A stretch of DNA of 64,000 bases from an uncultured Clostridia bacterium. GTDB taxonomy: Bacteria > Bacillota > Clostridia > Christensenellales > UBA1242. Within the stretch, counting starts at the first letter, position 1; each line of letters starts with the position of its first letter. Below the pieces are notes generated by a model. That model worked only from the letters and a program-made list of their open reading frames with translations. It had not been told where the DNA came from and did no database searches. Positions 10,855 through 46,619 of this stretch are shown here, piece by piece. The translations under genes and the position numbers were made by a program. The stretch covers positions 28,843 through 92,842 of the forward strand of contig CALVNP010000036.1 of the NCBI GenBank assembly GCA_944349805.1, read 5' to 3'.

Positions 10855-10861
10855 CAAAGTT

Positions 10862-10889: not shown

Positions 10890-10894
10890 TAGAT

Positions 10895-11557: not shown

Positions 11558-11593
11558 ATGCTAATTATAACATATGTAATCATTTTTTTGCAA
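11558..11593 (-). promoter_or_regulatory. promoter abutting the ung start codon (predicted leaderless)
   Basis: TTGCAA (11588-11593), N18, TATAAT (11564-11569), N6, ATG (11555-11557). No SD. Confidence 0.45.
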
Positions 11594-11703
11594 TTTGTTT
11601 CCATTTATTTAAATAATTCATATAATTATTATTAATTTATAATAAAATGTTTGTATTTTTTAAAAAAACTTGATATCATATACATATCTAAAATGGAGAG
11701 ATT

Positions 11704-18749: not shown

Positions 18750-18792
18750 AAAAAGAGATTATCGAACTGATAATCTCTTTTTATTATTTTTT
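18750..18792. terminator. bidirectional rho-independent terminator (glyA / giant-gene operon)
   Basis: A-run, AGAGATTATC (18754-18763), loop, GATAATCTCT (18769-18778), T-rich tail. Confidence 0.65.
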
Positions 18793-21700: not shown

Positions 21701-24700
21701 TTTTAAATTTTTTACAACAGCATTTTCTTGTATTGTTTCAAAAATACCAGAATATTGTAAATCATTGATTACAAGACTTGTTCTGTATGTAATTTTATGT
21801 CCGTTTCCATTAAAGCCTAAAATTGCAGTACTTATTGGAACAAAATCATCTTCTAATTCAATATCATTTACAAGAATATAATAACCACCAGCTTGCATTC
21901 CAATCAGTTCTTGATAATTAGAAATAGGTATTTCATTATTTTCTGTACCACTTTGGTAAGCTTCAATAAGAAAATCTGTTCCAAAGCTATTAGCATTTTC
22001 TTCTTCTGATTGTACCACTTCACCTTTACTGTATTTATAATTAAAATTATATGTTAGATAATAATTTGAAACAGAAGCAGAATTGATATAAAGTGGAATT
22101 ATGTAATAAACTCCATTTTCATTTTTTTCTATTCTGTAATACATATTGTTAGGGAGCTCAGATAAGCAATATTTATCGCCATTATTATTGGTAATGGACC
22201 ACTGACCTTCTTTTGCTAAAGATGTTTCCAAAGCTCTAACTTTTTGAACAATACCTAAATCATTTGAATTGTACTCTATTGTGATTCCGTTTACAAATTC
22301 TATACCAAGCTCTGTCCTATTTCCGATTGGTACATTAATTGTTTCTTTAACTGCATTTTTTATTACAATGCTAGCATTTTGATTATCATTTGAATAAGAA
22401 TATGGAACTATGTTGTCTTCTAAGATTACATAATCAACAATCATAAGTTTAAGCTTGTTAATGCCACTCTTATAAATTTTTCCGTCAACGGCCTTTTCAC
22501 CATAACAATCAATTTCAACAATGCATCCTTCAGACTCATTTTCATAATTGATGTTTGAACCAATCTGTAAAACATATTTGCCATTAACTTCACTTATAGA
22601 CGCAAAAGATGCAACAGAACTGTCAAAATGAATTTCATCTTTTGTAAAACCAACAATGTCAACATTTAATTCGTATGTCAATCCCCTAGCAACTAAGATA
22701 CTTTCATCTTTTAAATTGTTTTCCTTGCCAATAATAGATACATACACTCCATCTTTAATTACAACATTAATATTGCATATTGTCCCATTTGGTTGCTTAA
22801 TGTCATTTTTGTATGCATCAATATTGATTTTTACTATTTTACCATCTTGTGCTGTTGATGAAATATTGTATTTTATATACAATTTTCCATTTTCTATTTT
22901 TGAAACAGGAACTCTGATTCCATTTTCCACATTTTCTGCCCCAAAAATATCTATAATCTTGCCTGATTCTATTTTAACAAGAGAGAAAATTGCATTATTT
23001 CCATTTGCATAATTTGAACTATCATTTGTAATATAGATGTAATCATAATCAGCAAAAGAGGGATAAACCAAAATTTCAAGTAAATTATCACTACCTGGGC
23101 TTATGTTGTTTTCGCTTTGCACATTTTGATTGAATTTTTGAATGTCAACATCATAATAATTTTTAAATGTAATATTGTTAACTGTCTGTGTTTTTAAATT
23201 TACAATTACACTTTTAATATATCTATTTTCAGATATGAAATTTATGTAATAAACACCTTGGTAATCATTTTCTAATTCAGCTTGGTTGAATTTGAATGTA
23301 AAATATGAACTATCTTTACTATCTGGACTAAAATTATATACATTTTTATCATCACTTACTAAATTAGTATCAATAATATCAAAATAACTTGCAACATTAC
23401 CATCACCACCAACTTTTGTATAAGTAATGGTTAACTTATCGTTAGCATCATCAGTAACCCAACTTTCAAGTTTTATTGTAAACTCATCATTTGGTTCAAC
23501 TGCAATTTCATAAGTGTCAAGCTTAATTTCCGTAGTTCCTTTTATAACACTCACATTAGATGAATAATCATTCAATGTAAAATCTAATGCATAAACAACA
23601 TTGTTAATTGCAAATTCAAATGATGGTTCAATTTGTAATGTTAAATTTTCTTCATCATCATTCGCCGTAATATAAATTTTTTGATTTTTAACTTCAACAC
23701 TTATATTTTCACTATTTATTGTTGCATTAATATCAAAAAGTGTATTTTTAACTAATTGAACAGAAATTGGTTGTCCGTATTCATCAACAAGTATTGTTCC
23801 CCCTTCGGAAATTGTTGTAATATTACTATGCACAAACTCTGTATTTAAAATTAAAGTTTCATCTTTTTTCAAGGTGATATAAGCATCTTCATTAGCTAAA
23901 TATGTGTTATTATAAATTTTAACTTTAAAATCGTCAACGGCATTAAAGACATAGATATAAACCTTTTCTTCTATCTTTACACTTAAAATAGATGTGACTG
24001 TAATTTCAACAAGACCTGTTCCCCAAAGTTGAACATTCCCAAATTCATCAAAAGTTAAAATTTTATTATCTCCAGATGTTAGCTTAATGTTTTCAGGATT
24101 TACAAACTTTATAGGAAATTCCTGAGTATTCCAATTTTCTAACAAAGCTTGTTGATTAGAATTAACAGCTTGGTAGTAAAACAAATAACTTACAATTTTA
24201 AAATCTGTAACTGATTCATCTTCTGTAGAAGTAGAAATTAAATTTTTTGATTTTTCTTTGTTAATCGTGATAACATCTTCAATAAATTCAAAAGCACCGA
24301 CAGTGTCATCCTCTTTATCGAAATTTTCATCATAATATTTTATTGGTTTAACTGTTGAATGTTCATAATTGTAGTAGCAGTATGCCTTGTTGTTATTATC
24401 AACTAATGTTTCAGTCTTATCATCTCCAGCAAATGTATAACAATTTTCACCCGAAGTTGCAATTAACAGAGGGCATTCAACACCCGAGTATATTAATTGA
24501 ACCGTATTATTGCTAATCGTTCCTACATTTGTTTCAAACGCATTTCTCCCAGCTATACCACCAACATAATTTGAAGCTTTAACAAAAACTCTTGTTAAAC
24601 AATTTTTAACTGTTCCTTTTGAAACATTTCCACTATTATCAGCGAAATAATTTTGTCCAACAATACCACCTGCATTTTGTCCACCATTATCATTAGCTGT

Positions 24701-27700
24701 TGATTCAATATTGCCAGAAACCTTTAAATTATCAAGAATTCCTGCATTTATACCTGCTACTGCACCAATAGCATTAATATTTTTAACAGTTATATTTCCA
24801 ACAAAAGTAAAGTCTTGTTCGCCGTACACATAAGTTGTTGTGTCTAGTGATATTTTTCCCAAATTGTAGCCAACCACACCACCAACATAATGTTTTTCGC
24901 TTGCCGAATTTCCTTCAACTTTAAATTCATTTTTTACAGAAACAAGTTGTCGGCCATTATCATTTATTATTTCCCCACTAGACTTTCCTGCAACAATTCC
25001 CACATAAGCATCTGTTGTATTGCTTAGTACAAGTTTATCAGAACTTGTATTCAATAATGAAATTGATACATTTTTAATTGTACCTCTATTTTCTCCACAC
25101 AACAATCCAGCATATTTAGCCTGTGTTCCACTGTTATTTACAAGTGTTCCAGATATAATCAAGTTTTTAACACTTGCCCCTTCTTCAATATACGCAAAAA
25201 GTCCTAAATATGCATCTTCACCAATATTTCTTGTTTCACTTACTGTTAAATTAATAAGTCCTGCATTTGTATCTCCAACAATAGAACCTCTTAAAACACC
25301 AAACGTTGTTAAGTTTATTCCACTAAAATCAAGAACTGTGGAAATTTTATAATGTAAAGATAAATTTTGAGAATTTGATGCAACTTGTACAAATTCTTGA
25401 GCTGTATTTATGTAGATAGGATTTTCTTCTGTCCCATCGCTTGCGATAATATTTATATATTGCAAAGATTCAGCATTTGAACTTGTAATATTAAAATCTT
25501 CACCTGTATATCTATTTTTAGGAATGATATATAATCTTCCACTTCCTGCGCCATAGGAAATATTGTAACTCACTTTAATTTCTGTATCGCTTTTGGAATA
25601 AGTTATAATATTTGAATTTGTTGTATCATCTGGAACAAATCTTAAATCAAACTCCTTTCCGTCTGCGTCAACTGGATTTAAAAAGTAAGTTGTCGAATAT
25701 GTCAAATTTCTAGGATCTAAATACACTGTTTTCTGATAATTATTAAATCCAACAAAATTTACAGTCTTAAATTCTTTTAGAGTTAATGTAATCTTTGCAC
25801 TATATTTAACACCCATTAAAGTTAAGTTAAAAGTAAACCAATAATTTTTTATATCTGTGGAAATATTAGCATTATTACAAAACACACTTAAACTGAAACT
25901 TTTTCCATCATCAATAATATTGTATTTTCCAAAATTCGACAAAGTATATGTATAATCATTTGGGTTTTCAATATTTTCACTACCTATCGTCAAATCTTCA
26001 TCTTGAATTGAAGTTTTAAAAGATTTTGAATATGCTTCTTCAAATTTATTTAAATATTCAAAAATTTCATTATTGTTTAAATTTGTTCCACCATAAAGCT
26101 TAATAACTGGATATACTGTAATAAGAGAATATCCTTTTTCAATTCCGTAATAATATCCAATGTTTACATAATTGCTTATATCTAAATTTGTAACATTTTG
26201 AAACAAATCTTCGCTTATTTTTTGCTGAAAACCTACACTTTGAATTGGAACATAACATTTTACTTTTACAGTATAGGTTATAGAATTTCCATCTTTAAGA
26301 ATAAATCCTTCAATTTTTTTACTATTTACTGTCAAACTAAATTCAAATTCGCAAACATACGTCTTATCACTCAAATAAACTGAAAGATTTAAAACATTAG
26401 TATAGTTAGAAAACTTGCAATTGAATTTTTCAAAAGAAGAATCTATCTCGATTTTATCCCCTACTTTAGCTTCAACCGTATTTGTCACACCAACTGTATA
26501 AGAAGTCGCATTGCTTGGATATGGCAACAATTTAAAAATGTTTTCAGCATTGTCCTTTTTATCCATCAATATCATTGAATAATTATTTTCAATTTCAGTT
26601 GTTTCTTCAAAACTAACAATATTATCATTCATTTGAACTGCAAAGTCTGTTTTCTGTAAAATTGATTCAACATTAACATAAACTTCAGTTGATAATCCAT
26701 TAGGCAAATAAATTATAACCTTTCCACCACTTCCAACAGATAACGGAGTTATTTTTATTTTTGGTTTTTCTTCATTTGTCACCTGTTCAACTGTAAAGTA
26801 AGAAGCATTAACATATTTAAATGTTAAAATACCAACATATGCACCATTTGTAAAAGTAAAATTATCAAAGTCATGTGGCTCTGTATTTAAGTCTATGTAC
26901 AATATTTCTTCATTCGTTGGATAATTAGTTTTAAATTCACTAGCACCTTGAAGAATATTGATTTTATATGTCTTGTCAACTTCTTGACCTTGTTGAATTG
27001 TTGAACTTACAACAGTAAATCTAATACGTAATTCGCCATCATATATTTGTTGCCCTAATAAACTAATAGGCGAAATTAGTACATTGTTTTTAAAATCTGA
27101 ATAGAGAATTTCTATATAACCATACTCATTAGGTTTACGAACAACATTTTTATAGGATAATGAAACATAGTCAGTCCAATTTTCTATTCTCTCTTCATTC
27201 TCGTCACAAAAATCTATTTGTATTTTTTCAAAAGTTGATTCTGTTGAATAGATAATAGGTGTTAAATTAAAGTTTGCAATATTTGCATTGTAATTTTTAT
27301 CATAGAGATTTATTTCTCCATCATCTTCAAGTTCTCTAACTCCAATAAAACTTGGTGAGCTTATAACATTTATTTTATAACTTTTTACAACTTTAAAACT
27401 TGGATAATCATCATAATACAATGTTATTGTTAAGACATCTTCTCCCACATATACGGTCTGCAAATTAAAAACAACATTATTACTATCTTGATCTTCTGGT
27501 AAAAGTTGGGCAATTGTAAACTCACAACCATAATTAATGCTCAATTTTACATTTGAAGAAGTGTAGATTAATTTCACTTGAGCATTAGATCTTTTTTCAT
27601 CGTTTGAAACAAGTGTAATTTCTGATGCCTGTCCACTTTCCGCATTTTCTCCAATAGGGACAATTTGTGTTGGGTTTGCTATATCAGTTCCACCAAGATT

Positions 27701-28429
27701 AGTCAAAAGCATTTCATTAACAACTATATCTTCAATTATATCAACTGTAAAGGATTGACTTTCAATATCTGGATTTATTAAAGATGATGCTTTTAAGGTA
27801 AATTGATTGTTATCAATATCAAAAATGTTATCATTTTTACAGTAAATTCTTACTTTTGGCAATTCTTCACCATCTTCACCAACATTTTCGCATACAATTT
27901 TATCAACTTGATAATCAGTTTCATTTACAGTGTAATAGTAAACAAGATCAGTTTGCGTTGAATTTTCTGGAATAAAATTAAAGAGTGCTTTAGGAGAAAG
28001 GTCCATTTCAAACCCATCACTTCTTACAATATAAGCTTTTGTGGAATTTTTATAAAAGTTTTGTATGTTTTCTGTAACAACAACACTTATGGTTATTGAC
28101 TTGTTGCCACCTTCTGAAGTCTCAATTTTAATTTCACCCTCTCCAATTTTTAGAGCTTTAATTGTAATCCTTGTTCTTCCCCCACTTAAACTTTCATAAT
28201 TTAAAATTGATACAAACTCGCCGTCAGGACTTGCAGTAATGTTTGTACTTACTCCATTTGGAACATCGAGCACAGAAACAACAAGCTGACGCTCTTCCCC
28301 GACAACCATTTCTAAATTATAAGAATCTGCAACAATTTTCATATTTTTATAAGGGTCGCCACAGGCAGTGAGCAAAAGCCCACTGACTGCAACAATCAAC
28401 CCAAATAAAATTCCAACTAACTTTTTCAT
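18791..28429 (-). CDS. giant surface lipoprotein, 3,212 aa (Ig-like repeats plus three GLUG-motif-like beta-helix cassettes); paralogue of the upstream gene
   Basis: Uninterrupted 9.6-kb ORF in AT-rich DNA. GGAG SD. Signal peptide with lipobox 'LLLTAC|GDPYKNMKIV'. Recurrent 'GG[IL][VA]G-x-N-x-G-x-I' motifs. No LPXTG or SLH at the C-terminus. Confidence 0.85.
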   Translation of the reverse strand: MKKLVGILFGLIVAVSGLLLTACGDPYKNMKIVADSYNLEMVVGEERQLVVSVLDVPNGVSTNITASPDGEFVSILNYESLSGGRTRITIKALKIGEGEIKIETSEGGNKSITISVVVTENIQNFYKNSTKAYIVRSDGFEMDLSPKALFNFIPENSTQTDLVYYYTVNETDYQVDKIVCENVGEDGEELPKVRIYCKNDNIFDIDNNQFTLKASSLINPDIESQSFTVDIIEDIVVNEMLLTNLGGTDIANPTQIVPIGENAESGQASEITLVSNDEKRSNAQVKLIYTSSNVKLSINYGCEFTIAQLLPEDQDSNNVVFNLQTVYVGEDVLTITLYYDDYPSFKVVKSYKINVISSPSFIGVRELEDDGEINLYDKNYNANIANFNLTPIIYSTESTFEKIQIDFCDENEERIENWTDYVSLSYKNVVRKPNEYGYIEILYSDFKNNVLISPISLLGQQIYDGELRIRFTVVSSTIQQGQEVDKTYKINILQGASEFKTNYPTNEEILYIDLNTEPHDFDNFTFTNGAYVGILTFKYVNASYFTVEQVTNEEKPKIKITPLSVGSGGKVIIYLPNGLSTEVYVNVESILQKTDFAVQMNDNIVSFEETTEIENNYSMILMDKKDNAENIFKLLPYPSNATSYTVGVTNTVEAKVGDKIEIDSSFEKFNCKFSNYTNVLNLSVYLSDKTYVCEFEFSLTVNSKKIEGFILKDGNSITYTVKVKCYVPIQSVGFQQKISEDLFQNVTNLDISNYVNIGYYYGIEKGYSLITVYPVIKLYGGTNLNNNEIFEYLNKFEEAYSKSFKTSIQDEDLTIGSENIENPNDYTYTLSNFGKYNIIDDGKSFSLSVFCNNANISTDIKNYWFTFNLTLMGVKYSAKITLTLKEFKTVNFVGFNNYQKTVYLDPRNLTYSTTYFLNPVDADGKEFDLRFVPDDTTNSNIITYSKSDTEIKVSYNISYGAGSGRLYIIPKNRYTGEDFNITSSNAESLQYINIIASDGTEENPIYINTAQEFVQVASNSQNLSLHYKISTVLDFSGINLTTFGVLRGSIVGDTNAGLINLTVSETRNIGEDAYLGLFAYIEEGASVKNLIISGTLVNNSGTQAKYAGLLCGENRGTIKNVSISLLNTSSDKLVLSNTTDAYVGIVAGKSSGEIINDNGRQLVSVKNEFKVEGNSASEKHYVGGVVGYNLGKISLDTTTYVYGEQDFTFVGNITVKNINAIGAVAGINAGILDNLKVSGNIESTANDNGGQNAGGIVGQNYFADNSGNVSKGTVKNCLTRVFVKASNYVGGIAGRNAFETNVGTISNNTVQLIYSGVECPLLIATSGENCYTFAGDDKTETLVDNNNKAYCYYNYEHSTVKPIKYYDENFDKEDDTVGAFEFIEDVITINKEKSKNLISTSTEDESVTDFKIVSYLFYYQAVNSNQQALLENWNTQEFPIKFVNPENIKLTSGDNKILTFDEFGNVQLWGTGLVEITVTSILSVKIEEKVYIYVFNAVDDFKVKIYNNTYLANEDAYITLKKDETLILNTEFVHSNITTISEGGTILVDEYGQPISVQLVKNTLFDINATINSENISVEVKNQKIYITANDDEENLTLQIEPSFEFAINNVVYALDFTLNDYSSNVSVIKGTTEIKLDTYEIAVEPNDEFTIKLESWVTDDANDKLTITYTKVGGDGNVASYFDIIDTNLVSDDKNVYNFSPDSKDSSYFTFKFNQAELENDYQGVYYINFISENRYIKSVIVNLKTQTVNNITFKNYYDVDIQKFNQNVQSENNISPGSDNLLEILVYPSFADYDYIYITNDSSNYANGNNAIFSLVKIESGKIIDIFGAENVENGIRVPVSKIENGKLYIKYNISSTAQDGKIVKINIDAYKNDIKQPNGTICNINVVIKDGVYVSIIGKENNLKDESILVARGLTYELNVDIVGFTKDEIHFDSSVASFASISEVNGKYVLQIGSNINYENESEGCIVEIDCYGEKAVDGKIYKSGINKLKLMIVDYVILEDNIVPYSYSNDNQNASIVIKNAVKETINVPIGNRTELGIEFVNGITIEYNSNDLGIVQKVRALETSLAKEGQWSITNNNGDKYCLSELPNNMYYRIEKNENGVYYIIPLYINSASVSNYYLTYNFNYKYSKGEVVQSEEENANSFGTDFLIEAYQSGTENNEIPISNYQELIGMQAGGYYILVNDIELEDDFVPISTAILGFNGNGHKITYRTSLVINDLQYSGIFETIQENAVVKNLKIAFNNTTNTNITISNSSTNSYFGLLAGRNLGIITNCEIVSNVNNIYVNMNPNFSSTTYVAGLVGYNEGYISNCRAVLNIIVRRSNLAGLVAINQGSIASSYVKNSNLTNESTISSTNKTAGFVISNGISNVQNITISNEDIPKIITSYVSGSTSSYIYADENYKIWSNVEVSGFAYNNFGIIADCYSNIALNSQSIRTGFAFNNTGLIQTSYSSSTFIGQNSQTDFGFVYNNQGSNQMGIIKDCNYLLGNKNNGIFMSNVSGLTALTELDFSNSNYFKTYAISDSGEKTKGVWFYPSYEQDFDFIYNNEPMKFTYGRLELVAPNIIVDSSQQLETSYTDQATGEQIFVYSGGEEKGSKYNPYIITSAKNFEEIILETNVGVRNSKYYRLVKNIDYVEENILNSMLFKTVFVGDIEGNGMTISGVVVDSRESLNYGGLFAKIGEGYSYSGAIKNLIYKPKYINMPNTSCVGALSGSLENGMLFNVNVIGDEYDSSGIVVVGKNVVGGVLGMANYSYKLYNLTSSVSASATYRSIDFGNKFNFYKNEASGISMISYAGAIAGIIEGSGDVKYVSVTGITRALGEVAGLYFGRVGKDSNITNLEISVESGQFVNAAYYGGILTGELCGIVNNLQLSGTTTNFFRYVPSVPSAVGSVAGYMSGGTIQNINVNLDLIFPNIEVVGGIVGEMIGGTISQVVKQGDITSMHIAGGIVGLTNDTCANDSSVQKSNIVISNSQVLNGKILVTNDNLLLAFVGGVIGINQFAKSTSDADSKVDYSERKVINCYVEADLEIYSTMYNGLFTAGMGGIVGASYDGISRENTASSGIVIYNDGYVSDYMPAQAEIQGYYYKDKTAYYSTNCTYTVTIKNYRGNGEVIFHYGAIIGFGSAYEPTTTSDITDNIELFYYWEEGNAERNLANASNSIVNFNIWAPDSTKNYQKDCENEIKDEKNHSGNSYLTLEGSGTQSGGEGA

Positions 28430-28459: not shown

Positions 28460-31400
28460 TTAACTAACAATATCGTAAATATGTGATAATTTTTTAAGAT
28501 AAGGTAATCCCTCATTTATGTTAGCATCTATTTCCCAAATATCTCCACCATCAAAATCCCAGAAGTTGACTGTAAATGTTTTACTGATTGTGCTATGGTT
28601 TTGAACCAACGCTTTATCAATCATTCTTGACCTATAATATCCAACTACATAAACCGTTATATCATTTTCATCTTCATCCTTATCATCATAAGATTCCAAA
28701 ACACGCATTCCTATTGTTTTAATAGTTTCTGCATTAATATTCATTTCAACCGTACCGTTCGTACCGTTTTCAAATTTATATAATGGATTTAAAATTGGTG
28801 CCTTTCCTACATTATAACCATTTTCAAATGAAATGCTAGCCCTATGTGTTTCATTAAACTCTATTGAATAAACTTTTTTATTATTTTCATCAGTTTCTGA
28901 AATTTGTCCAACAAATAGAGTTTGTTGTGTTGTACTATCTCCGTTATCCACATCAAATTTATACTGAATACCAGCTTTAACTTCTGAGAAATTAATATGG
29001 ATTATGTCCTTAAGCGTTACTTGATTTGATGGTAAAGAATTACTTAATCTAAACATTCCTGCATATGTTTCTTTATGATTTATCATATCTGCTTCCTGAT
29101 AAGCATTATCACCTGTTAAACTAATGGTGATTTCATCTGCAAGCCTTATGTGTACGGGATTAGTATAAACTTCGGGCGTTATTTCATCGTAAATAACGAT
29201 ATAAGGATTTTCAATTTTGTAACCAACCACAGTATTAGTTGTTGTTTCAGTAATTTCTTTCAAATCATCCTCATTTTTATAATACAACTTGACAAAATTT
29301 TGATCAACCTTAATCATTGTACCATCGGAACTTGTACCATCTTCGCTTGTTGTTGGCATTTTTATAATTGTATAGTCGTCAACTGAGTAACCTGCATTTT
29401 GTCCATCTAAAACCCAAACAAGTTGTCTGATATCTGACTCTTGAACACCTTCTCCTGAAACTTGATAAGTTTTTTTAGAATAAATATATTGCTCTCCATC
29501 TTCTTCATACAAAGCATAACCATTACTTAAATCATCACTTGTATAAGATATTTCATCTTCTTTTAAAGAATAATAGGCATATTTATCACCTTCATTATGT
29601 GAAAAGTTAGAATAATTAATTTCAGTACTAGAAGAATATTTAGAATAATTTTTTAAATCATCCAATGATTTTTTGTAATTTTCATTCTTTCCATCGTTAT
29701 ATGTTCCAGGTCTATGATTCTCCCCACTAACATTACTTAAAGAATAAGAACTTGTAATTTTTGAACCATAACCAATTGGGGCAATAAATGAATCACAGAA
29801 TTCAGAGTTTTGATTTGATGTATTTAAATCATCAAAGACGATAGGGTATACAGTTGAGCTATTCTCTGGTGAATAAGCCATATTTCGCCCAAACCATCGG
29901 GATTCATCAAAATAACTAGTTATTGATATGCCACCATTATTCTTCAATAAAACTAAATCAACTTTCGTATCTGGCCACAATAAATACGCTCCAACGGCAG
30001 CTATACCTATAACACCCGCAGCCACCCAGCCAGCTACAGGGACTGTTGACACTCCAGCAGCTGTTGCCAGAAGACCTCCCACAGCTGCCGAACCTGACAC
30101 ATACATACCTACACCCGCAGTAGCTACAAATGGAGTGGCTATATAAGAAACAACAGTTAATGGATCTATTGTGCTAGCCTTTTCATAAATTGACCCATCA
30201 TACAATACTCTTAAATATTCATTTTTTACTTCATCATTTTCAATTCGACCATAGGAAGTATAATCATCTCTTTTTAATGTAAAACTTGAAGAATCCTCTT
30301 GTGGTTCAGAGCCATCCCATCTGCTATGTGATCCATAAAGAATATGAATTCTTGGAGACTCTGTTTTAGATTCCACAATATTTTTAGCTTCATTTCTTAT
30401 AGTGTCTGCTATGTCCCCTTCATTTGTTGATAAATTGCCTATATTATAACAAGCATTAATAATTGAATTTGTGGCAATACCAGAAGAATATGCTTGCCTT
30501 AATAACATAAACACAACAACTTCATAAACTGAATATTTTTCTGAATATGTAACAGTTTTGCTTTCTGTATAATCTCTTCTAATCACAAAATAACTTGCCG
30601 TAGGTCTATATGCAGCATTTAAAGAAAGATTTCCATATTCATCACGCTTAATATTACCCTTTTCATCTCTCTCTTCCAAACTATAAGAGGAAAGTTTTGG
30701 GACACGAGCATTTGCAGAAATATCTCCCTTGTTGTAACAATTATTTATTATTATGTTTCTAACAACATTACCTATTGCATTTCCAGTTGACGAAAAGTCA
30801 AACCAAATTCCACCTGTTCCTAAAATTCCACCTGCATATGCATACAATGGGAGATTTTCATCGTTTGATTGATTTTCTTCTTGCCCAGCAACAATTTTAC
30901 CTGTGTTGTAACATTCTTCAATTGTAACAAAAAGCGATGTTGTTGTGGCTCCTCCTTCCGTTGCATTTGTTCCACTTTCTCCTAACAAATAGCCTAAAAT
31001 ACCACCTGCAGTTGTTAGTGTTTGTGTACCAGAACCATTGCTTAAAATTGAAGTGTTGTTATTTGAACATTGTGAAATTAATACATTACCAGCTTCCACT
31101 GCGCCCATAATTCCACCAGCATTGTTGTAAGCTGTTATACTTCCACCGATGATATGACAATTAATAATGTCTATATTCCTACCAGCCCCAACAATTCCAC
31201 CTGCTGATGTTTTTGTGTTATCTACTTTACTTGCAGTTATTGTTGGATTATATAAAATTATATTTTGAATTTTCTTATTTGTTATATTTTCCACATTCAT
31301 TCCTGCATTTCCAAAAAGTCCAGCATTCCCACCTTTTTCATTTACAGTCAAATTAGAAACAGTCAAATTAGAAATTGTTTTATTATTACCATTAAAGTTA

Positions 31401-34400
31401 CCTGTAAATGGAGCGCTTGATGAACCTATTGGTGTAAACTCATTAATTCCAGCACTTGTTAAATTAATATCATAAATTATCTCATAATCAGAATTAAAAG
31501 TATATCCATTTTCTGAACCATTTGCAGAAGCAAGTTGAGATAATTGAGATAACTTCCTAGCACTTGGAATTTGGAATGGATTGTCCTTCGTTCCATCACC
31601 TGTGTTTATGAGCATATAAGCACTTGTTCCATTATAAGCCGAACCACCAAAGAACTTGTAACCAAAGTTTATTGTTGGATCCTGTGCGTATTTGTTTTCT
31701 GCAGAAGTGGTGTTAAACACAGACATTTCTTCATTTGATGTGCCGTTTTCAGAAGTCAATTCAGTTGCATACTTATCATATTCATTGCTATCATTAGCTC
31801 CAACCCCAAACACACCAGGAGTCCCGTAGTTAGATGTTTTAGCTTTCGCAATTGTATAACTATTAGCCACACTACCACTTTCATCATAACTGAAAGCAAA
31901 TATGTTGTGTGTTCCATCGCTTGAAGTCAAGTTAGATTGAACAAATCCTGTACTATAACAAGAGTCTATAACACCATAATTTTTGCCTACAAATCCACCA
32001 AGGTAAGCATTTTCAACCCTAGATGTATCAGTTACAATATCAACCATAGAGAATGAATCTGCAATGAATCCATTATTAACTCCAACAAATCCACCAATTG
32101 TCAATGTTGTAGTTTCAGCTGTTATTCCATTTATGCTTATTCCACCTTCGATACCCTTTGTAACTTCAATTTTGGGATCGTCTGGAATAGTTCCAGAATT
32201 TACTGTATTACAAGCAAAAATTATTCCTTCGTTTGTTCCAACAATACCACCATAAATAGCTTCAGATGAAACTAAATTTCTTGTATCTTGATAAGCCCTT
32301 ATATCCACAAAAACTTTTAAGCCTGAAATGAAACTGTTTTCATCAAGGGTCTTTACAAATTGATTTGTTGTATAAGTGCTACCAAAAACACTAGGTGTGA
32401 CATTTATAGTTGAACCATTTCCAATAAATCCAACATTTTTAAATTCTTGGTTGACAATATTTGTCACATTAACATTTTCTTGAGTTGTTAGTGTGAAATA
32501 TTTTCTCTCTGATACCAAAGAACTAAATGGATTTGCACCACTTTGTCCTATATAATCATTAAGAGTATTGTCGTTTATAGAAACCTGCCAATTTCCACTA
32601 TTATGTTGTGCAACTGTTACAGAACCAGCTTTGATGTAATCTCCATTTATCTCAAAAGGATTTAACTTGCTTCCATAGTGAGCAGAAGAAATAAGGTTAC
32701 TTTGATCGGTAGCTTTAAATGCATTCAAAATTCCTGTATAGGTCATATTTGTAGGCCCAGATGTTGATGTATCAAGCATTAAAGTAAGTTGACTACAATA
32801 ATAGTTGTTTTGTAATGTTGAACTATTATTATTTCCAGCAACAACTCCAACATTTGTCTTTACAAATGGATAAATAAAAGATGCTAGAATATAGTTTGTT
32901 TTTATTTGACTTCCATTTGCCCCAATTCCAACAATTCCACCTAAATAGCCACTATCTCCTATACTACTTTTTAGTTGAAGGTCCGTGTAAATTATATTCT
33001 TTTCTATAATCGTCTTAGATATTGATGAAGTATTCTTTGAGCTACCATTTATAGAGCCCACCATTCCACCTATTATGCTATTTTTTGAATTATCTAATTT
33101 TAATGAACCACCACACACAGAATTTGAAATGTTTAATGTATGGTCTGTATTTACAAAACCAACAAATCCACCAAAGTAAATATCGCTTGAATTTGAATTT
33201 GATATATCAAAAACACATTCGCTAAGTGATGATGTAATTTCAGAACTTTCATCTTCATTTGAATTTTCTTCTATATATGCAACAATTCCACCAATGAACT
33301 TTGTCCCAGATGATTCTAAAGTATAATTAATGGTTTGCCCAACTTTTATTTTATTTACAATCGCTTTATTCACTACATAACCAAATGCACCTGAAACATA
33401 AGAAGAATCAGTTTTGGAAGATAATTCGGAATTACCTGCTATTTGGATATTTTTAACATTTAAAGAATTTGCATATCCAATTGCACCACCATAGTACAAA
33501 TCGGCATTTGTTAAAAGATTAATATTATTTTGTACTTTCAAATTAAATTCAGCATTTTCTTCAGCATTTGGAGATTTTATAGTATTGATATTAATGCCTT
33601 TGGTTGAGCCAGACACCTTACCAAAAATTCCACCCACATAAGCAGAGTTAACTTGCACTTTTGTGTTAGAACTATCCTTATTCAACAAACTATCATTAAT
33701 AACAAGAGTTGTTGCATTTTCATATTTTTGATTTACTGTCACATTTGCATAACCATTAACTTTTCCAATCAAAGAACCGTAATACAAGTTAATTGAACTC
33801 GTTTTATTGTCAAATTGTGTTGTCAGATTGTTAACTGTATTCTTTTCATTATTATATAAATCCAAATCTATTGAAGCTGAATAGCCAGAGATATAACCTA
33901 CATACATATTAGTTTTAGCATCAGTTGTAGTCGTAGTAGCTTTTGTTATACTAATATTTATGGAGCAATCATAAAATTCCACACCATCAATTATTGTTTC
34001 TATATTTGTATCATTTATATTAATTTTCCCAGATACAAAACCAACATAATTATTTGTTTGTTCCCCATCGCTATTAAAATCTATATAGCAATTGTTAAAT
34101 GAAATATTTGCGAAAGAGCATCTGCTTGCAGATGATGTTAAAAGTCCAACAGAATCATATGTACTAGGATTAATTGAACAATCTTTAAATATAATGTTGT
34201 TAAATGTTGTTCCGGTTGCGTCTTCAACTAAAATTGCATTAACATCTCCATTTCTGACTCCAAAAGATGTTTCCCCAACATTTTGTATTACAAAATTGCT
34301 AAATTGAGAACCTGTTAAAGTTGATGTAAACAATGGTGCAGTTATTGTGTTTTCAGAATTTGTCACACTAAAGTCTAAACCATAATTACCAGAATCATCT

Positions 34401-37400
34401 TTACCTCTTAATAATCCTGAGAATCCATTAACAGTGAAGCCTTTCATTGTTGTTGCTAAATAATCACCAACAGGAACTATTCCACTATTATCATTTCCTA
34501 TAATTACAAAAGTTTTGTTTTTGTACTGATTTAAAAGTTCAAGGTCAGATGCTTCTCTAATGTAAATTACAGAAGGGGCAACTTTAAACACAAGATGTGG
34601 GAAGAAATGTGGTTGATTTTCACCTGTTGAAGTTTCCCAATACTGTTCGTCCCAACCAACATTTCTAAATATCTTATTCATTTCATTTACAAATTCAACA
34701 TTGTTAGATAATCTTAAATCCTCTATAATTTGTACATTTTCCGATATTATATAGTTATTATCATTAATGTAATTACTTTTATTTAAATAATAAGCATTGT
34801 TTGAAGTAGAAATTTTTTCAATCGAGTGTACATCAAAATTTACTGTATTGACAGAAATTTCATCAACAATATAGCTTGCATCTGGTGTATAAGGTGTATA
34901 ATATATGTCATAAACATTATTCAAAATATTTTTACCGTTTACAACAGAATACTGTCCACTTTCCGTTCCTTGACTGCTAGGCACAGAGAGATAATTAATA
35001 GCATTAATTTTAGTTAATGTAATTCTTCTCCATACACCATTTTTAATATAGCCAAAAATTCCACCTGCGCCGACATTTGCAAGTAAATCCCCTGTTGCAT
35101 AAATTTCAGTAAAGGTTAAAGGCATTGTTTGAGTAAGCCCATAATCTTTAAGCGCACCAAAACTGCTGTTATCTCGTCCACTTATTCCACCAATAATACC
35201 ACCAGCATATTTTGCACTTGAAGATCTTACATTAATTTTAGAATAGCTTTTTTCTAATTTTCCTGTAACGAACTCACCTACAATACCACCAATATACTCT
35301 TGCTTGTAATTGGTTGAATCTTCATATTCAAATAAATTTAAATTTCCTCTATTTACTGATGCACTAGAATTGTTATAGTATGTTGAATATCCATTTTCAA
35401 TTTCAGTTTGATCTTCAGGCGAATGCTCAGCTCTTACCATAAACAGGTAACCATAATTTTCACCAACTATTCCACCTGCAGAAAATTTATATGCAACAAG
35501 TTTTTGTGAATAGTCATTTTGTGTTGAAGAACTTAATTCAAATAATGCGTCTTTAAGCATAGTTTGTGGCCCTAAGAAACCAACAATACCACCAACGGTT
35601 GCTCCGTAAACCTGCATATTTCCTAAGCTTTTTATATTATAAACATTAGGTGTTGACAAATTTAAGTCAAAATTATATGCGTTTATATCTACATATATAT
35701 CAATGACTCCTGCTACACCACCAGCATAAGAAATATTACTGCTATTCAAACGATTATAGAACTGTTGTGTTATGCTAGCATCTGTTTGATTACCTGCAAC
35801 AACCATTAGATTTTCAACAGATACATTACTTACATAGCTTTGTCCAACAATTCTTCCAGCCAATCCACCAACGACATTATATCCGTATATAACAGCATTA
35901 TCATTTTCAGAAGAAGATTTAACTGACACATTTATGATTTTTGAATCTTGTATAGTTCCAGCCAAAGCTCCAACATAATTTACTCTTGTTGCTGATACAC
36001 TATTAATTTGTAAGTTCAAGTTCATTACAACAGCACCATTTTCAATTTGTTTAAATAGCCCATAGCTTGTGTTTGTACCACCAAGTGTGGAAACCAACTC
36101 AATTCCTGATATTGTAAAGCTATTTCCGTCAATAAAACCTAACCCGTTTATTTCTCCCTGATTGTTATAAGTTGGAGTTAAGGACATTTCTGTAGATTTT
36201 ATTGTCAAACCCGATTCGTCAGATAATAAAGTTGAAAGGTCAATATTGTCAACAATTCTATAATTACCAAAAACTTTGTTTTCAACTAAATTATAATAGA
36301 AGGCAACGCTTGTACTTACATTTGATGTATCACCACCAAAAACTTGATTGAATTCTGTTTCGTTTCTGATGATAATAGGGTTTTTAGAACTACCATACCT
36401 ATAACCATCGTCGTATACGAAGCTATAATCAACAATTTCACCTGAAGAGTTAACTTCTTCAACTCTAAGTGTCCTTGATGAAATTGCAATATTGTTTGCT
36501 CCAACAAGTTCAGGTCCTCTTGAAGTCATATACCAAACACCATCAATTGCTATATTTTCCACCGAACTTGTAGTAAAGGCAAAACCATAAAAATTATCTT
36601 TAATATCTGGTTCGTAAACTCTATTCACAGAAGTATTGTAAAGAGACTCTAAATCAGAAGAATTATATTCATCTTCTAAAGAAGAATTTGAATTGTAATA
36701 GTAACAATTTTCAACCAGACCATAATTTTGAAGTTCAAGGTTGATGTCAACACCCAAGAAATTCATTTGAGTACTGCTTGAATTTTCAATTTTAGAAGCA
36801 GAATAGCTTCTTCTCACAATACCATCAGTTGTATTGATATAAACGAAACCAGCACTAAGCCTTCCACTTTGATTGTCAGATATAGTGGTCAGCATAATAT
36901 TAGAGTAAGAATCTTCAATTGTTCCATTGTTTTGATATATGAATCCTGCACCAACACTTGCTGTTTCAATACCTCCACCCGTTGTGTGTATTTCATAACT
37001 ATTATTATAAGCACCTTTAACATAAGATAATCTTATTTCACCTGTGTTTTGTATTGCGAAACCAGCAGTTGAAGTACTTGCCCCATTTATTGTTGCATTG
37101 TAAATTTTTCCGTTATTAAAGAAGCTTGATGCGATTGTTCCAGAATTTGAATAAACAAATCCAGCGATATCACCTTGAGCATAAATGTTAAATATAGGAA
37201 GGTTAATCTCAGGTTTATTTACGACTTCTAAGGAAGTACCACCAACTCTGCTGTTTGTTATATTACCGTTGTTTTCTATAACAAACCCTGCAACACAACT
37301 AGTTATGCTTTCAACATTAATGTTTTGTCCATAATTAACATATATTCCAGGAACAGCTGGATTAGGTCTGTCCGAATCATCGTAACTATATGCAACAACT

Positions 37401-40400
37401 TCACAGTTTGTAATAATACCATTGTTGCTAATAGCCAAGCCTGCCACATTGACACTAGAAACAATTGACATATCAATATTGATATTTCCACCATAGTAAA
37501 CATTTACCCTAAGATTTTTTAATGTGGTTATATCACTCACATTGTTAAACAACGCAATATTAATTGAAGATTGATCTGATGGAATGTTATAAGACAATAT
37601 GTGTATTGTTTTATTGTTTCCATCTAAACTCTTTATATTTGTTGTATCAAATGGAGAATAATTTAAAAGATATATATCTTCTGTTAAGATGTAATCTAAT
37701 GGAGTTGAAGTTTCGCTGTTTGTATTTTGAAGAGCTATAAACTTTTCAGCGCTATCAATGATTACAGGTTTATCTTCATTTGTCTCTAACACAACATTAA
37801 TTGTGAAATAATAATTAATATAGGTCTTAATAGGCTCATTTGTTCCATTTGGTATTTGAATTGGAATTCTTAAAAGCATATTTAAACTACCCGTTGAAGC
37901 TTGAAGTCCACGGACATATAAATTTGAGCCATCATAACTAAACCTGCATAAATTATTTGAAGCTATTTCTCCTGTGACTCTATTAAACACTTTACTTAAT
38001 TCTACTTTATCTTCGCTAAATCTGTCAGCATAGTATAAATTGTCTATAAAGTTAGCAACAATTACACTATTTGTAGAATCAAAATCAAAATCATATGGCA
38101 AATTGTCATAAAAACCATTAACTATGTAGCTTTGTCTTTGGTCATAAGAAGTATCAGGATTAGAATTAAAGAAATTATTTGCATAAAATTTGCTTAAGCT
38201 ATCATTTCCCAAGAAGAAATCAATGTCAAAATCAAATTCAAGTTTTTGTTCTGCTCCAACATAAACAGTCAAAACATCTTTATTGTAAGCATCAGTTTTT
38301 ATTTGTGTGTTTTCACCATTTATAACAAAATCTCCAACAGCAACATAAACCACATCTTCTGCCGTTTCAATTGCATTGTTGATTAATCTTGAAGTTTGAG
38401 CCGTAATTGTGAAATAGTTTCTCCCACCCTCAATCAACACATCTGTTCCAACATAAACTCTAGTGGTATAAGTTTTTAATCCACTTGTTGAATCTATAGT
38501 ATATGTTAAAGGGTCATAAGAAACATCTCCACTTTCAATGTCAGAAATTCTTAAGCTATCAATTGTTTGATCAGCATTTACAACAATCTGAACATCACCA
38601 AAACCACCTTTTGCAATGAGTGTCTGCTTTTCTCCATTAATTGTTATGTTTGGTTTTGTAACAGTTTGTACTGAAATTTGGAATACATTGGAAGAAGAAA
38701 GTAAATTTCCATCTTTATCATAAGCACTGATAACAAGTTGATAAATTGTATCCACATCAATATTATTAGGAGCAAAAGTTCTAAGATAAACCACACCAAT
38801 ACTGTTGTCATTTTGACCAGCATTGTTAAATATCTTAATTCCATTCACTAAGGACTCGTAACCTGTTGTTTTCCTAATAAATTTATTTGAGCCATCTAAT
38901 TTTTCCATCATACCAAGTCTAAGCTGATAAGACGAGCCTGAAACTGTACTTGTTGTTACAGTTATGTAGTCATAATACGAATAAGATGGATATAAATCAA
39001 TTTCTAGCAACCCTTCATTTCCAGGAGCTAAAATAGCTTTAGGAATTTCATCATAGGAGTATGTAAGTTTTTCTACATCTCCAACATTTTCCCATAAAGC
39101 CTTGTCTAATGGACTATGAATTGAATTAATGTATGATAATTTTTGTGTTTGCACATAAAGGTCAAAATCTGTTGAAACATTTGTACTTTGTGCAAAGAAC
39201 TCTAATTCATATTTTACATTATCAAAATTTAAAGCTTTAATTGCGTTATTGTCAACAATTCCAAAGCTCACTTCGTATACTTGTTTAAAATACTTAGCTG
39301 AATCATCAGTATCAGCCTTTGTTGTCATAGTTTTATCTGTGTAACCAGTAACAACAGGATTTTTAATTTTTATTTCAATAATACCATTTGTAAATATTCT
39401 GTAATCACTGTCTTCAAAGATTTTTATATAATTAATGCCTTCTAGTTGTAAAGCATCATTAATAACTTCATCATTTTCATCAACTGTTTGAGTTATACCT
39501 GCATATTTTGTAAACTCTTCCCCAATTTCATCATTGTTAATTATTTTAACAACTAAATCATCAGCTGTGTTTTGGTCTGCATAAACAGTAACTTCAACTG
39601 TTTGAGCAAAGGAATCTATTGGTTCGATTGAAAGTTCCTTGCTTTCAGTAATAACCGAATCAGCGCCATTGTATAAATTAACCTTAAAAGTTTTTACATA
39701 TCGCCCTTTTATCATTTCATTAAATGTTGTTTCATTTGTTGTTTCATTTGTTGTTTCATTTAAGTCTTTAATTTGTAAATACAATGATACATCAATAATT
39801 TGGGCTTTGGTCTCTTCCGAAGTTTGAATAATATGTGTACCAATATTTTCTCCACTAATAGTCAAACCATCATCAGCCAAACCATCATCAGCCAAACCAT
39901 CAACAGGTTTGTTTTTAACGATATTTTCAACGATAAATTCATTTTGAACAAGATTTAATTTTCTGTTAACGGCAATTTTTGAAGTGGAAATCGAAGAAGA
40001 AATATTTTCAGATTGTCCCTTTTTAATTGAAATTTCAGAGCCATTTGTCAATTCTGCGTCCCGATAATTCAATTTGAAATCTGAAATTTTATAAACTATA
40101 ACAGCATTGTATGTTTTCTTTAAACTATAGTCATATTTAGAGAAGATAGTAAAATCAAAACTTGTATAGCATATATCTTGAATTGTTATATAGTTAGGTC
40201 CATTGAATATTGGTGGTGTTTCCCCTTCTCCAAATGTAATTCTAAGAGAAGAAACATTTTGTACCCCAAACAGATCTTGGAAGCTAATTGTATTCCAGCT
40301 TTGAATAACTGCATTTTCCATATCTGTTAAAGAACTTTCACTTGCCTTATAATAATAGAAAATTACCTTATTATCTTTTCCCACTAATGTCAAATCTGTA

Positions 40401-45222: not shown

Positions 45223-45237
45223 AAATTTAATAAAAAA

Positions 45238-45272
45238 ATAGGCAAAAATGTTAAAAAATTGCCTATTTTTTT
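45238..45272. terminator. bidirectional rho-independent terminator (ttcA / spoIIID)
   Basis: ATAGGCAA (45238-45245), 13-nt loop, TTGCCTAT (45259-45266), T6. An A-run precedes it. Confidence 0.55.
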
Positions 45273-45291
45273 AATTTTTTTATGATTTTTG

Positions 45292-46567: not shown

Positions 46568-46619
46568 ATTTCCTCCCGTGGAAATTATTGACAATAAAAT
46601 AAAACTTTAAACATTACAA

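Follow-up and report, generated by a model that had tools for sequence, protein, structure and literature searches.

Two giant genes for predicted lipoproteins at the locus

The window, that is, the whole 64-kb stretch of DNA that was analysed, comes from an uncultured Clostridia bacterium and carries two paralogous giant genes on its minus strand. Gene A (28460..44332, minus strand; from the ORF list and its translation) encodes a giant predicted lipoprotein of 5,290 aa, which contains a long uncharged hydrophobic segment near its C-terminus. Gene B (18791..28429, minus strand) lies 30 nt downstream and encodes a paralogous lipoprotein of 3,212 aa, which does not have the hairpin-like segment, as the first-pass annotation of this DNA had stated. 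The A-B gene pair is syntenic in L001 and L036. The neighbours of gene A are housekeeping genes, and no toxin, immunity or secretion-system genes were found near it.

Lipoproteins were recognised by a positively charged n-region, a hydrophobic h-region and a lipobox of the form [LVI][ASTVI][GAS]C. All three occur in the signal peptide of gene A (44246..44332, minus strand; read from the sequence), whose N-terminus is MRYFKK...FLSAC (MRYFKKLYLIPAMILMVLSFGATIFLSAC) with the lipobox L-S-A-C at residues 26-29 and Cys29 as the cysteine. The N-terminal lipoprotein signal that had been noted before is therefore present, and gene A is a predicted lipoprotein of the Lgt/Lsp substrate class. Neither lgt nor lsp was found among the genes scanned in the 64-kb window. 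The same signal design is found in gene B, in the full-length orthologue P0001 (5,600 aa) and in gene B orthologues, and the mature N-terminus CGDPYKN is common to gene A, gene B and the orthologues.

The gene A family is very rare, with two matches in 1.84 billion representative proteins. No matches came from a word-index homology search in which the C-terminal 760 aa of the gene A protein were the query, the same search with a profile returned beta-helix cassette relatives only, and the first genome scan with a single-protein query returned no matches. The whole gene A protein gave nothing useful against Pfam, NCBIfam and PDB sequences; a HalA match (E 0.013) and a pilin match (E 0.09) in the family and PDB sequence searches were regarded as noise. 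Three orthologues, P0001, L001 and L035, cover the region of the segment.

GLUG-type cassettes and the C-terminal region

Start and cap motifs alternate five times in the gene A protein. The fifth GLUG-type beta-helix cassette (aa 4245-4640; 30413..31600, minus strand) opens with the start motif GDGTKDNPFQIPSARKL and continues through a series of rungs, the last of which is INACYNIGNLSTNEGD. It aligns to cassettes of P0003-P0007, two of which carry PF07581 (GLUG), and of 33 other loci. The PF07581-annotated proteins P0003 and P0005 gave profile matches with E 6e-11 and 1.5e-8, while the Pfam GLUG model itself found one stretch of the window protein with 17.9 bits (E 0.004), below the cut-off of 20.5. 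The protein shares with known GLUG-motif cassette proteins the start G-D-G-T-x-x-N-P-[FY]-x-I, the motif F-x-G-x-F-[DN]-G-N-x-x-T-I, the GG[IL]xG rungs and the W..F...W......P[YF]P[IL]L cap. Among the proteins compared, P0003 and P0005 have a T9SS tail, and P0007 is an InlB-B-repeat protein. Unlike gene A, neither the 33 other cassette loci nor the five protein matches show any long hydrophobic stretch free of charged residues within a cassette. It was in the Zmp/IgA1 protease family that the GLUG motif was originally noticed.

The C-terminal end of the protein is formed by the cap motif WDFDGGDIWEIDANINEGLPYL (aa 5258-5279; 28496..28561, minus strand), a canonical GLUG-type cassette end located by regular expression, alignment and hhalign. 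It aligns with canonical caps (hhalign probability 72%, E 3.3e-5), and it has invariant columns in all four aligned proteins (gene A, P0001, L001 and P0002). The first-pass annotation had described the tail W..D....W.......GLPYL as common to the cassettes; in this exact form it occurs only once in the protein, and degenerate forms of it (LWNFSKNVNNGYPYF, WDEQYWETSTGENQPHFFPHL and INFGYKFF) close the other cassettes. Starts and caps stand in a ratio of 1:1 only if the terminal cap belongs to cassette 5, which would place the putative hairpin inside one extracellular module.

A poorly conserved linker of about 220 residues, with the segment inside it, leads from the last beta-helix rung to a conserved C-terminal domain. 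Its upstream part (aa 4641-4723; 30164..30412, minus strand) is polar and charged and poorly conserved in the orthologues in a four-way alignment; its downstream part (aa 4788-4846; 29795..29971, minus strand) starts with P-D-T and is acidic and likewise poorly conserved in the alignment. The conserved orphan C-terminal domain (aa 4847-5257; 28562..29794, minus strand) starts at DSFIAPIGYGS, as delimited by alignments, and is mostly beta according to a weak prediction. This domain had no match in Pfam, NCBIfam or PDB and does not resemble any toxin family. Its composition ratio of exported versus cytoplasmic sequence is +17 nats; cytoplasmic proteins gave no control window above +5, and the exported part of the protein gave none below +17.6. 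Its composition resembles that of the exported part of the protein and is unlike that of the cytoplasmic proteins of the window.

An uncharged segment and its GC peak

A run of 64 aa rich in Gly, Ala and Val (aa 4724-4787; 29972..30163, minus strand; from the sequence and a GC scan) contains no D, E, K or R. It had been described before as about 56 uncharged residues lying about 500 aa from the C-terminus; the peptide quoted then corresponds to aa 4730-4786, and 504 aa follow it. The run is the longest of its kind in the gene A protein, the runner-up being 39 aa, and given the size of the protein and its share of charged residues, chance would produce about 0.008 runs of such length. It is also the only Kyte-Doolittle peak of the protein besides the signal peptide. 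In each orthologue, too, this segment is the sole strongly hydrophobic stretch besides the signal peptide. In a search of the three hairpin regions against Pfam with hmmscan, no match was obtained at E up to 10, and the hairpin had no useful match among NCBIfam families and PDB sequences either.

The segment coincides with a peak of GC content (0.516, compared with 0.313 for gene A and 0.297 for the window). It ranks first among all 186-nt windows of the 64 kb, in agreement with the GC-rich stretch of about 185 nt reported earlier, and has a z of 5.6 within gene A. The excess falls on codon positions 1 and 2, and for aa 4730-4786 the codon usage of gene A itself predicts a GC content of 0.488 (0.526 observed). 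The peak is therefore attributed to the Gly/Ala/Val content, and since the amino-acid composition accounts for it, foreign DNA as its source was ruled out. An RNA element in the GC-rich stretch was ruled out as well, because Rfam gave no match there. The GC-rich codons also give rise to an antisense ORF on the plus strand (29928..30146; 72 aa, Pro/Ala/Thr-rich; from the ORF list). This ORF had been called spurious in the first-pass annotation, and we concur: a real plus-strand gene was rejected because the ORF is antisense to a reading frame conserved in four orthologues.

Conservation and allelic variation of the segment

Retention of the segment in homologues that keep the C-terminal domain had been set beforehand as a check, and both are retained in all three orthologues that cover the region. 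In all four proteins (gene A, P0001, L001 and L035) the segment stands at the same place and shows the same order: first a Gly/Ala helix of weak hydrophobicity, then a Pro/Gly turn, next a strongly hydrophobic helix and last an acidic flank. Its length is 50-64 aa, its G+A content 32-47% and its number of charges 0-2, with low sequence identity. Composition is thus kept while sequence is not, a pattern typical of a lipid-facing anchor.

The glycine-zipper-like spacing that had been reported earlier could not be found. The segment of the window protein has no GxxxG but only small-xxx-small pairs, and the counts in P0001, L001 and L035 are 1, 0 and 4. A glycine zipper (GxxxGxxxG, of the Gly-zipper or Rick_17kDa_Anti type) was therefore rejected, GxxxG being absent or not conserved and a Pfam match being lacking. 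The alternative of an oligomerisation or pore-forming element, proposed in the first-pass annotation, is not supported on the same grounds, composition alone being conserved.

P0001 and L001 are otherwise 99-100% identical alleles, and the most divergent block between them comprises the hairpin and its linkers, with the upstream linker least conserved. The variable block is about 400 aa and contains indels, while the C-terminal domain shows mosaic allele sharing. A diversity-generating retroelement behind this block was considered and rejected, as about 400 aa with indels is unlike a DGR variable region. The allelic hypervariability around the segment hints at a module under selection. It counts against a buried anchor, because divergence of this kind is seen more often in surfaces that are exposed and selected.

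Membrane scoring of the two putative helices

The segment can be divided into three parts. Helix 1 (aa 4735-4759, FVATAGVGMYVSGSAAVGGLLATAA; 30056..30130, minus strand) is marginally hydrophobic, with a predicted insertion free energy (dG_app) of +1.82 and a low-confidence AlphaFold2 helix at 4739-4758. A short turn, GVSTVP (aa 4760-4765; 30038..30055, minus strand; from the alignment), contains Pro and Gly and is uncharged. Helix 2 (aa 4766-4786, VAGWVAAGVIGIAAVGAYLLW; 29975..30037, minus strand) has a dG_app of -0.93 and a low-confidence AlphaFold2 helix at 4767-4783. The free-energy scale is our own re-implementation, checked only on two transmembrane helices and three artificial sequences. 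On this scale the signal peptide of gene A (aa 6-29) scores -1.87, and helix 2 is the most transmembrane-like internal stretch anywhere in the gene A protein.

The window protein, P0001, L001 and L035 all have the layout of a hairpin, in which a short turn rich in Pro/Gly stands between a pair of hydrophobic segments, each 17-25 aa long. In the insertion free-energy scan, helix 2 scored -0.93 kcal/mol in the window protein and -1.98, -0.76 and +0.56 kcal/mol in the orthologues, so it lies below zero in three of the four proteins, while in L035 neither helix does. Helix 1 ranges from +1.3 to +1.9 across the four proteins, and an exported beta-helix rung of the gene A protein, at +1.62, scores equal to it, which makes the hairpin less certain. 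Of the membrane hairpin put forward in the first-pass annotation, the scan thus rates helix 2 as an autonomous transmembrane helix in three of four proteins and helix 1 as marginal.

These scores could also be read as a single-span anchor, in which helix 2 alone would cross the membrane (N-out, C-in), leaving helix 1 on the outer side or in the interface and the final 504 aa in the cytoplasm. In favour of this, dG_app is negative for helix 2 alone, helix 1 behaves like an exported rung, and helix 1 of P0001 and L001 holds Lys and/or Glu. However, the 20 aa past helix 2 contain 0-2 K+R compared with 2-5 D+E in all four proteins, and this flank opens with P-[DE]-[DET] in three of them and with S-D-P in L035. 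A neutral-to-acidic flank is the opposite of a cytoplasmic one and favours the outside. Besides, a cytoplasmic C-terminal domain is at odds with its exported-like composition and with a C-terminus formed by the cap motif that closes extracellular cassettes. The central turn would also be pointless in a single span, yet Pro plus Gly stand at the segment centre in all four proteins, and the form AAG-x(2-3)-P-x2-GW occurs in three of them. We therefore hold a single span to be decidedly unlikely.

The turn also bears on the orientation of a hairpin. It has no Lys or Arg and hence lacks a classical positive-inside signal, which counts against the hairpin. P0001 and L001 have a single Lys in the turn-proximal half and a single Glu toward the outer ends, a placement which fits a turn on the cytoplasmic side.

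Another reading keeps the segment out of any membrane, as a buried hydrophobic core, as a degenerate series of beta-helix rungs or as an oligomerisation interface. MAFFT set the cassette rung motif GGI(A/V)G against GW(V/I)A.G of helix 2, and the rungs are themselves Gly-rich and moderately hydrophobic. But real rungs alternate with polar residues, while the segment has 50-64 residues with 0-2 charges, lies between two variable linkers outside the rung array and is very poorly conserved in sequence next to highly conserved flanking rungs. The weak AlphaFold model drew two helices and no strands in it. Taken together, this makes a non-membrane role highly improbable. The AlphaFold2 models of aa 4245-5290 (3-sequence alignment; mean pLDDT 33) and of aa 4850-5290 (pLDDT 29) were too low in confidence for use, and an alignment with canonical cassettes added, whose rungs were smeared over the C-terminal domain, was left out of folding.

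Comparison with known membrane elements

VacA of Helicobacter pylori combines a beta-helix and a Gly-rich hydrophobic segment that forms a channel; like the colicin hairpins and the diphtheria toxin T domain, it acts on target membranes. VacA relies on conserved GxxxG repeats for this, and colicins and diphtheria toxin on a surrounding helical bundle. Gene A resembles these systems, in which Gly/Ala-rich apolar segments of similar hydrophobicity are joined to a secreted beta-helix or toxin scaffold and insert into a membrane. It departs from them in that GxxxG is either lacking or varies between the orthologues and in that linkers of variable sequence flank the segment; the searches found no homology.

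The likeness raises the question of whether the segment could be a latent insertion hairpin for another membrane (of a host, prey or competitor). Variable linkers would hold it out at the tip of a fibre whose N-terminus is lipid-anchored, and it would act in the manner of a fusion peptide or of a toxin's insertion hairpin instead of anchoring the protein in the producer. On our dG scale the VacA N-terminal segment scores +0.7 and the HIV fusion peptide +1.1, which is the range of helix 1 and of helix 2 in L035. A hypervariable hairpin and linker block next to a mosaic C-terminal domain is what an exposed, interacting tip would be expected to show, and VacA likewise joins a beta-helix to a segment of this kind. 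Against this, helix 2 scores -0.8 to -2.0 in three of four proteins, and one would ordinarily expect Sec export to halt at such a helix and the chain to pass into the membrane of the producer. Moreover, the segment has no conserved GxxxG or other motif except the turn, no toxin, immunity or secretion-system gene is nearby, and the C-terminal domain is not similar to any toxin family. We consider insertion into another membrane unlikely. Its more specific form is quite unlikely in our view: the hairpin would be the active tip of a contact-dependent device, in which a giant fibre held by its N-terminal lipid presents a hypervariable module that enters a host or competitor membrane in a fusion-peptide-like or pore-initiating manner, and replacement of the block among near-identical strains would be the mark of an arms race.

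The published recipe for helical hairpins asks for a hydrophobic stretch of at least 40 residues with turn-promoting residues mid-way (PMC8657811). The segment is like the hairpins of von Heijne and Mingarro (PMC8657811) in having at least 40 apolar residues, central Pro/Gly, a very short loop and an occasional Lys or Glu. Unlike those model hairpins, that of gene A would be inserted 4,700 aa into an exported lipoprotein, with an exported domain of about 500 aa after it, and one of its helices is marginal.

Pneumococcal Zmp/IgA1 proteases provide a case of a two-TM element within a large Gram-positive surface protein (PMC3518915). They share with gene A the large surface protein and the exported anchor element followed by two predicted transmembrane segments, after which export would resume. 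In Zmp, the pair stands near the N-terminus after LPXTG and the protein has an HExxH protease domain, while in gene A the pair stands about 500 aa from the C-terminus and the anchor is a lipobox. We found no LPXTG-like motif near the hairpin, no HExxH in the window protein or the orthologues, no Pfam M26 match and no Zmp sequence similarity, and so membership of the Zmp/IgA1 protease (M26) family was rejected.

In the Zmp/IgA1 protease model, the second transmembrane segment acts as a second signal peptide (PMC3518915). By analogy, helix 2 of the hairpin might be an internal signal peptide, with a cut by signal peptidase or another protease after it that frees the C-terminal domain of about 500 aa. 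Small residues do occur close to where helix 2 stops, namely AVGA for the window protein, GCA for L001 and VGS for L035. But there is no consistent -3/-1 motif, P0001 having FLA-I, and three of the four proteins have Pro as the residue right after helix 2, which disfavours cleavage there by signal peptidase I. The C-terminal cap motif also suggests that the domain stays in cassette 5, and without LPXTG or HExxH the protein is not a Zmp relative. Release of the domain in this way seems very unlikely to us.

A candidate second membrane anchor

On balance we lean, by a modest degree, towards reading the segment as a predicted two-helix membrane hairpin with both flanks outside, which would serve as a second anchor in the producer's own cytoplasmic membrane. 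Its membrane insertion, its topology and its role as a second anchor are inferred here from the features of the four proteins, and the giant surface loop of the first-pass annotation depends on the hairpin reading in turn. One point disfavours a hairpin anchor on general grounds, since surface fibrils made of a long multi-domain chain are not usually tied to one membrane by both of their ends.

A possible course of events would be as follows. The lipoprotein signal peptide would route the chain via Sec, Cys29 would be lipidated, and about 4,700 aa of Ig-like and beta-helix cassettes would be threaded outward. When the apolar stretch of 50-64 aa reaches the translocon, it may exit sideways into the bilayer as a hairpin, the weaker helix 1 being drawn in by the strongly hydrophobic helix 2. 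Helix 2 would then act as a reverse signal-anchor and restart export of the last 500 or so residues, so that the C-terminal domain could fold outside and the terminal cap motif complete the fifth beta-helix cassette. The two poorly conserved linkers, of about 85 and 60 aa, may give the hairpin enough length to get from the folded domains to the membrane.

For annotation, the lesson of this locus is that its GC spike is compositional and its antisense ORF spurious. If a membrane-attack device were true, gene A would represent a new kind of Gram-positive adhesin without detectable homology to known toxins. If the hairpin anchor is true, this would be a rare gut-type Clostridia surface protein tethered at residue 29 by a lipid and at residue 4,730 by a hairpin, whose export would have to restart for a further 500 residues. 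It would be an unusual way of holding a protein of about 600 kDa on a Gram-positive surface, and a test case for how Sec handles a marginal-plus-strong helix pair deep in an exported chain.

A long uncharged segment in lipoprotein A

Two giant ORFs lie on the minus strand, A (28460..44332; 5,290 aa), which carries the segment studied here, and its paralogue B (18791..28429; 3,212 aa), 30 nt downstream of A. The full run of A without D, E, K or R spans 64 aa (4724-4787; nt 29972-30163) and is the longest in the protein, with about 0.008 runs of 64 uncharged residues expected by chance. The peptide quoted in the first-pass annotation is aa 4730-4786, leaving 504 aa C-terminal to it, which bears out a long uncharged hydrophobic segment about 500 aa from the C-terminus. 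As had also been claimed, B has no comparable segment.

The GC content of the interval is 0.516 versus 0.313 for gene A, and it turned out to be the GC-richest of all 186-nt windows in the 64 kb (z = 5.6 within the gene), confirming the GC-rich stretch noticed at first. First and second codon positions carry the excess. When the segment residues were written in the codon usage of gene A, the predicted GC was 0.488, near the 0.526 observed; the peak is thus a side effect of Gly, Ala and Val codons, and foreign DNA as its source is ruled out. The plus-strand ORF 29928..30146, suspected to be spurious, is present and is an antisense artefact. The glycine-zipper-like spacing was not recovered: the segment contains no GxxxG motif, and its membership of the glycine zippers fails.

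Genomic setting

The window is a chromosomal stretch of a Firmicutes-type bacterium (GC 29.7%), with genes for a large-type SRP RNA and tRNA-Arg and the protein genes glyA, folD, ttcA, ileS, mfd, alaS and pepF. Both A (FLSAC) and B (LLTAC) have an N-terminal lipoprotein signal peptide, after which comes GDPYKN; the mature N-terminus CGDPY[KQ]N[VM]KIV is common to them, and their identity is only about 25%. The lowest GC of the profiled region (15%) is found in the intergenic stretch 45200-45400, between ttcA (44512-45222, plus strand) and an M23 peptidase gene (45980-46594, minus strand). Besides, two minus-strand ORFs of about 410 aa each (58154-59401 and 59259-60494), one with a GTG start, overlap by 143 nt, which may reflect a mis-called start or a frameshift; neither these nor the 554-aa ORF 51913-53577 (minus strand) matched a Pfam family at E <= 1e-5.

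Orthologues of A

A word-indexed search with the last 760 aa of A gave no match, and exhaustive phmmer with the same C-terminal 760 aa gave only 2 matches among 1.84 billion representative proteins, both singletons: P0001, of 5,600 aa (38% identity across the whole query), and P0002, a 134-aa fragment matching the tail only. The protein family of A is almost unsampled. A genome scan with an alignment added L001, from an uncultured Clostridia MAG, where a B orthologue directly follows the A orthologue. In a metagenome scan two more came up: L035, an orthologue at a greater distance (35% identity), and L036, where only the C-terminal domain is present, with a B orthologue after it. At least three genomes show the A-B tandem in synteny (window 18791-44332; L001:155-23051; L036:1-7143), the start of B lying at most about 30 nt from the stop of A.

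In a four-way alignment, a hydrophobic element occupies the equivalent place in all four proteins covering the region, namely YIATPFVATAGVGMYVSGSAAVGGLLATAAGVSTVPVAGWVAAGVIGIAAVGAYLLW-PDT in A, SAAAFTTGVALGAELAAGFALKAMAAGASMAGPIGWIAVAAAAIILTFVFLAI-PEDE in P0001, SAAIQGIIYSIGSALLLKAGIAAAGTVPVVGWIVVGVAILVEIGCALFL-PDD in L001 and VAAGTGIGVGAAAVGGFAYVLGVTIAGTSVIPGIGLPIAAAAAVIGGLIGYFVGS-DPGE in L035. The segment is kept in 3 of 3 orthologues, which answers the homologue check proposed for it. Sequence identity is low, length is kept at 50-64 aa, and composition is kept as well (G+A 32-47%, 0-2 charges). The central Pro/Gly turn is conserved, in the form AAG..P..GW in three of the four, and the sequence after the element starts acidic in all of them. 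Since the segment has no polar alternation and its sequence conservation is very low, a non-membrane core or degenerate rungs is the least probable reading that we considered. Past the GLPYLK cap, the orthologues continue for about 110 aa more in a beta-rich extension (P0001 aa 5490-5600; P0002; L035 C-terminus); A does not have it and stops 11 aa past the cap.

Location of the putative hairpin in a GLUG-type cassette

A contains five GLUG-type cassettes, between about 310 and about 1,030 aa long, opening with '..NP[FI].I....L' and closing with the cap 'W...W......[GP].P..[LF]'. Starts and caps alternate (979/1286, 2186/2597, 2649/3241, 3253/4221 and 4249/5273), as they do in P0001, and the fifth pair therefore places the hairpin inside the fifth cassette. 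The tail reported as shared with other cassettes occurs in its exact pattern only once in A; degenerate versions end the other cassettes. The relationship to the GLUG type is drawn from profile matches of the A region to PF07581-annotated proteins, from alignment with canonical cassettes (start, FxGxF[DN]GN and cap motifs in common) and from a cap-to-cap profile comparison (hhalign probability 72%, E 3.3e-5); the Pfam GLUG model run directly against A gave a sub-threshold match only. Judged by cassette homology, A is a member of the broad group of GLUG-type beta-helix surface proteins. Such an uncharged run is absent from all 33 other GLUG-type cassette loci.

The start motif G-D-G-T-x-x-N-P-[FY]-x-I (window 31550-31600) and the cap motif W-[DN]-F-x3-W-x-[MI]-[DN]-x5-P-[YF]-P-I-L (window 28496-28561), considered with the four other start/cap pairs, are recognisable marks of GLUG-type cassettes, common to Bacteroidota T9SS proteins and these Clostridia lipoproteins.

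The surroundings of the hairpin are a poorly conserved stretch of about 220 aa, bounded by a conserved last rung (INACYN.G...NE.D) and by the start (DS[FY][VI]AP[IL]GY.S) of the C-terminal domain, a conserved orphan domain. Variable linkers of about 85 aa and about 60 aa lie upstream and downstream of the hairpin.

Membrane topology

The putative hairpin of A consists of helix 1 (aa 4735-4759), the turn GVSTVP (aa 4760-4765) and helix 2 (aa 4766-4786). Insertion was scored with our own re-implementation of the position-dependent Hessa/von Heijne scale (sanity checks: glycophorin A -1.65, LepB H1 -1.62, soluble control +14). On this scale helix 2 came out at -0.93 (A), -1.98 (P0001), -0.76 (L001) and +0.56 (L035), and is the most TM-like internal segment in each protein. 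Helix 1 is marginal (+1.3 to +1.9), comparable to an ordinary exported rung of A (LPLYAYAGGILGTGGIWFDF, +1.62), so hydrophobicity alone cannot separate one span from two. AlphaFold2 gave low-confidence helices at 4739-4758 and 4767-4783 (mean pLDDT 33) and no usable model of the C-terminal domain (pLDDT 29).

Four observations, treated as independent, speak for two membrane crossings that leave both flanks outside. Within the 20 aa past helix 2, all four proteins have 0-2 Lys/Arg and 2-5 Asp/Glu, the reverse of what a cytoplasmic flank would show. The C-terminal domain has an exported-like composition, with an exported-versus-cytoplasmic likelihood ratio of +17 nats (at most +5 for cytoplasmic proteins of the window, at least +17.6 for the exported part). 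A ends with an extracellular-cassette cap, whose rungs precede the hairpin. Helical hairpins are known to form from a long apolar stretch that has turn-formers in its middle (PMC8657811), and P0001 and L001 place a lone Lys near the turn and a lone Glu toward the outer ends. One span only, with the C-terminal domain in the cytoplasm, is contradicted by the flank charge, the domain composition and the cap, and we regard it as unlikely. Cleavage after the second TM segment was proposed for pneumococcal Zmp proteases (PMC3518915); a hairpin cleaved after helix 2 is somewhat less probable still here, with no consistent cleavage motif and Pro directly after helix 2 in three of the four proteins.

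On balance, we lean slightly towards a helical hairpin in the producer's own membrane, acting as a second anchor. This part of the first-pass interpretation is favoured by flank charge, C-terminal composition, cap and turn, and its glycine zipper falls away. Sec would export the chain, and Cys29 would be lipidated. From membrane insertion onward we infer the steps: once about 4,700 aa had passed, the apolar stretch would partition sideways into the bilayer, helix 2 taking helix 1 along; helix 2 would re-initiate export of the last ~500 aa, whose cap would complete cassette 5 outside, and the variable linkers would give the hairpin slack to reach the membrane.

Allelic variability of the putative hairpin module

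P0001 and the L001 protein share 99-100% identity over more than 3,500 aa. At P0001 aa 4824-4973 (upstream linker and hairpin) identity falls to 8-38%, and beyond aa 4973 it is 62-84% out to about aa 5070. The divergent block lies in P0001 aa 4675-5070 versus L001:~10400-11800 (window counterpart ~29800-30500). Centred on the hairpin module, it looks like a block of allelic replacement by recombination, or of diversifying selection. It could come from recombination combined with relaxed constraint on spacers, or from selection acting on a module that is exposed. In a second mosaic patch (P0001 aa 5272-5321), L036 agrees with P0001 and differs from L001.

It is mainly this block that keeps alive an element aimed at the membrane of another cell, the foremost of the alternatives and still improbable. 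The hairpin module is hypervariable and its composition is like that of VacA or fusion peptides, but the producer's translocon should retain helix 2, the proteins share no conserved motif and the neighbouring genes are housekeeping ones.

Comparison with known systems

As a second anchor, the segment would work like a classical TM helical hairpin. Among natural proteins the nearest parallel is offered by streptococcal Zmp/IgA1 proteases, with their two TM segments; membership of that family was rejected, since A has neither LPXTG nor HExxH and shows no sequence similarity to it. With GLUG-type beta-helix surface proteins A shares cassette homology, but sampled members have no hydrophobic insertion. 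In conclusion, the putative hairpin insertion inside a GLUG-type cassette would be a new variation on the known TM-hairpin design, in an almost unsampled family.
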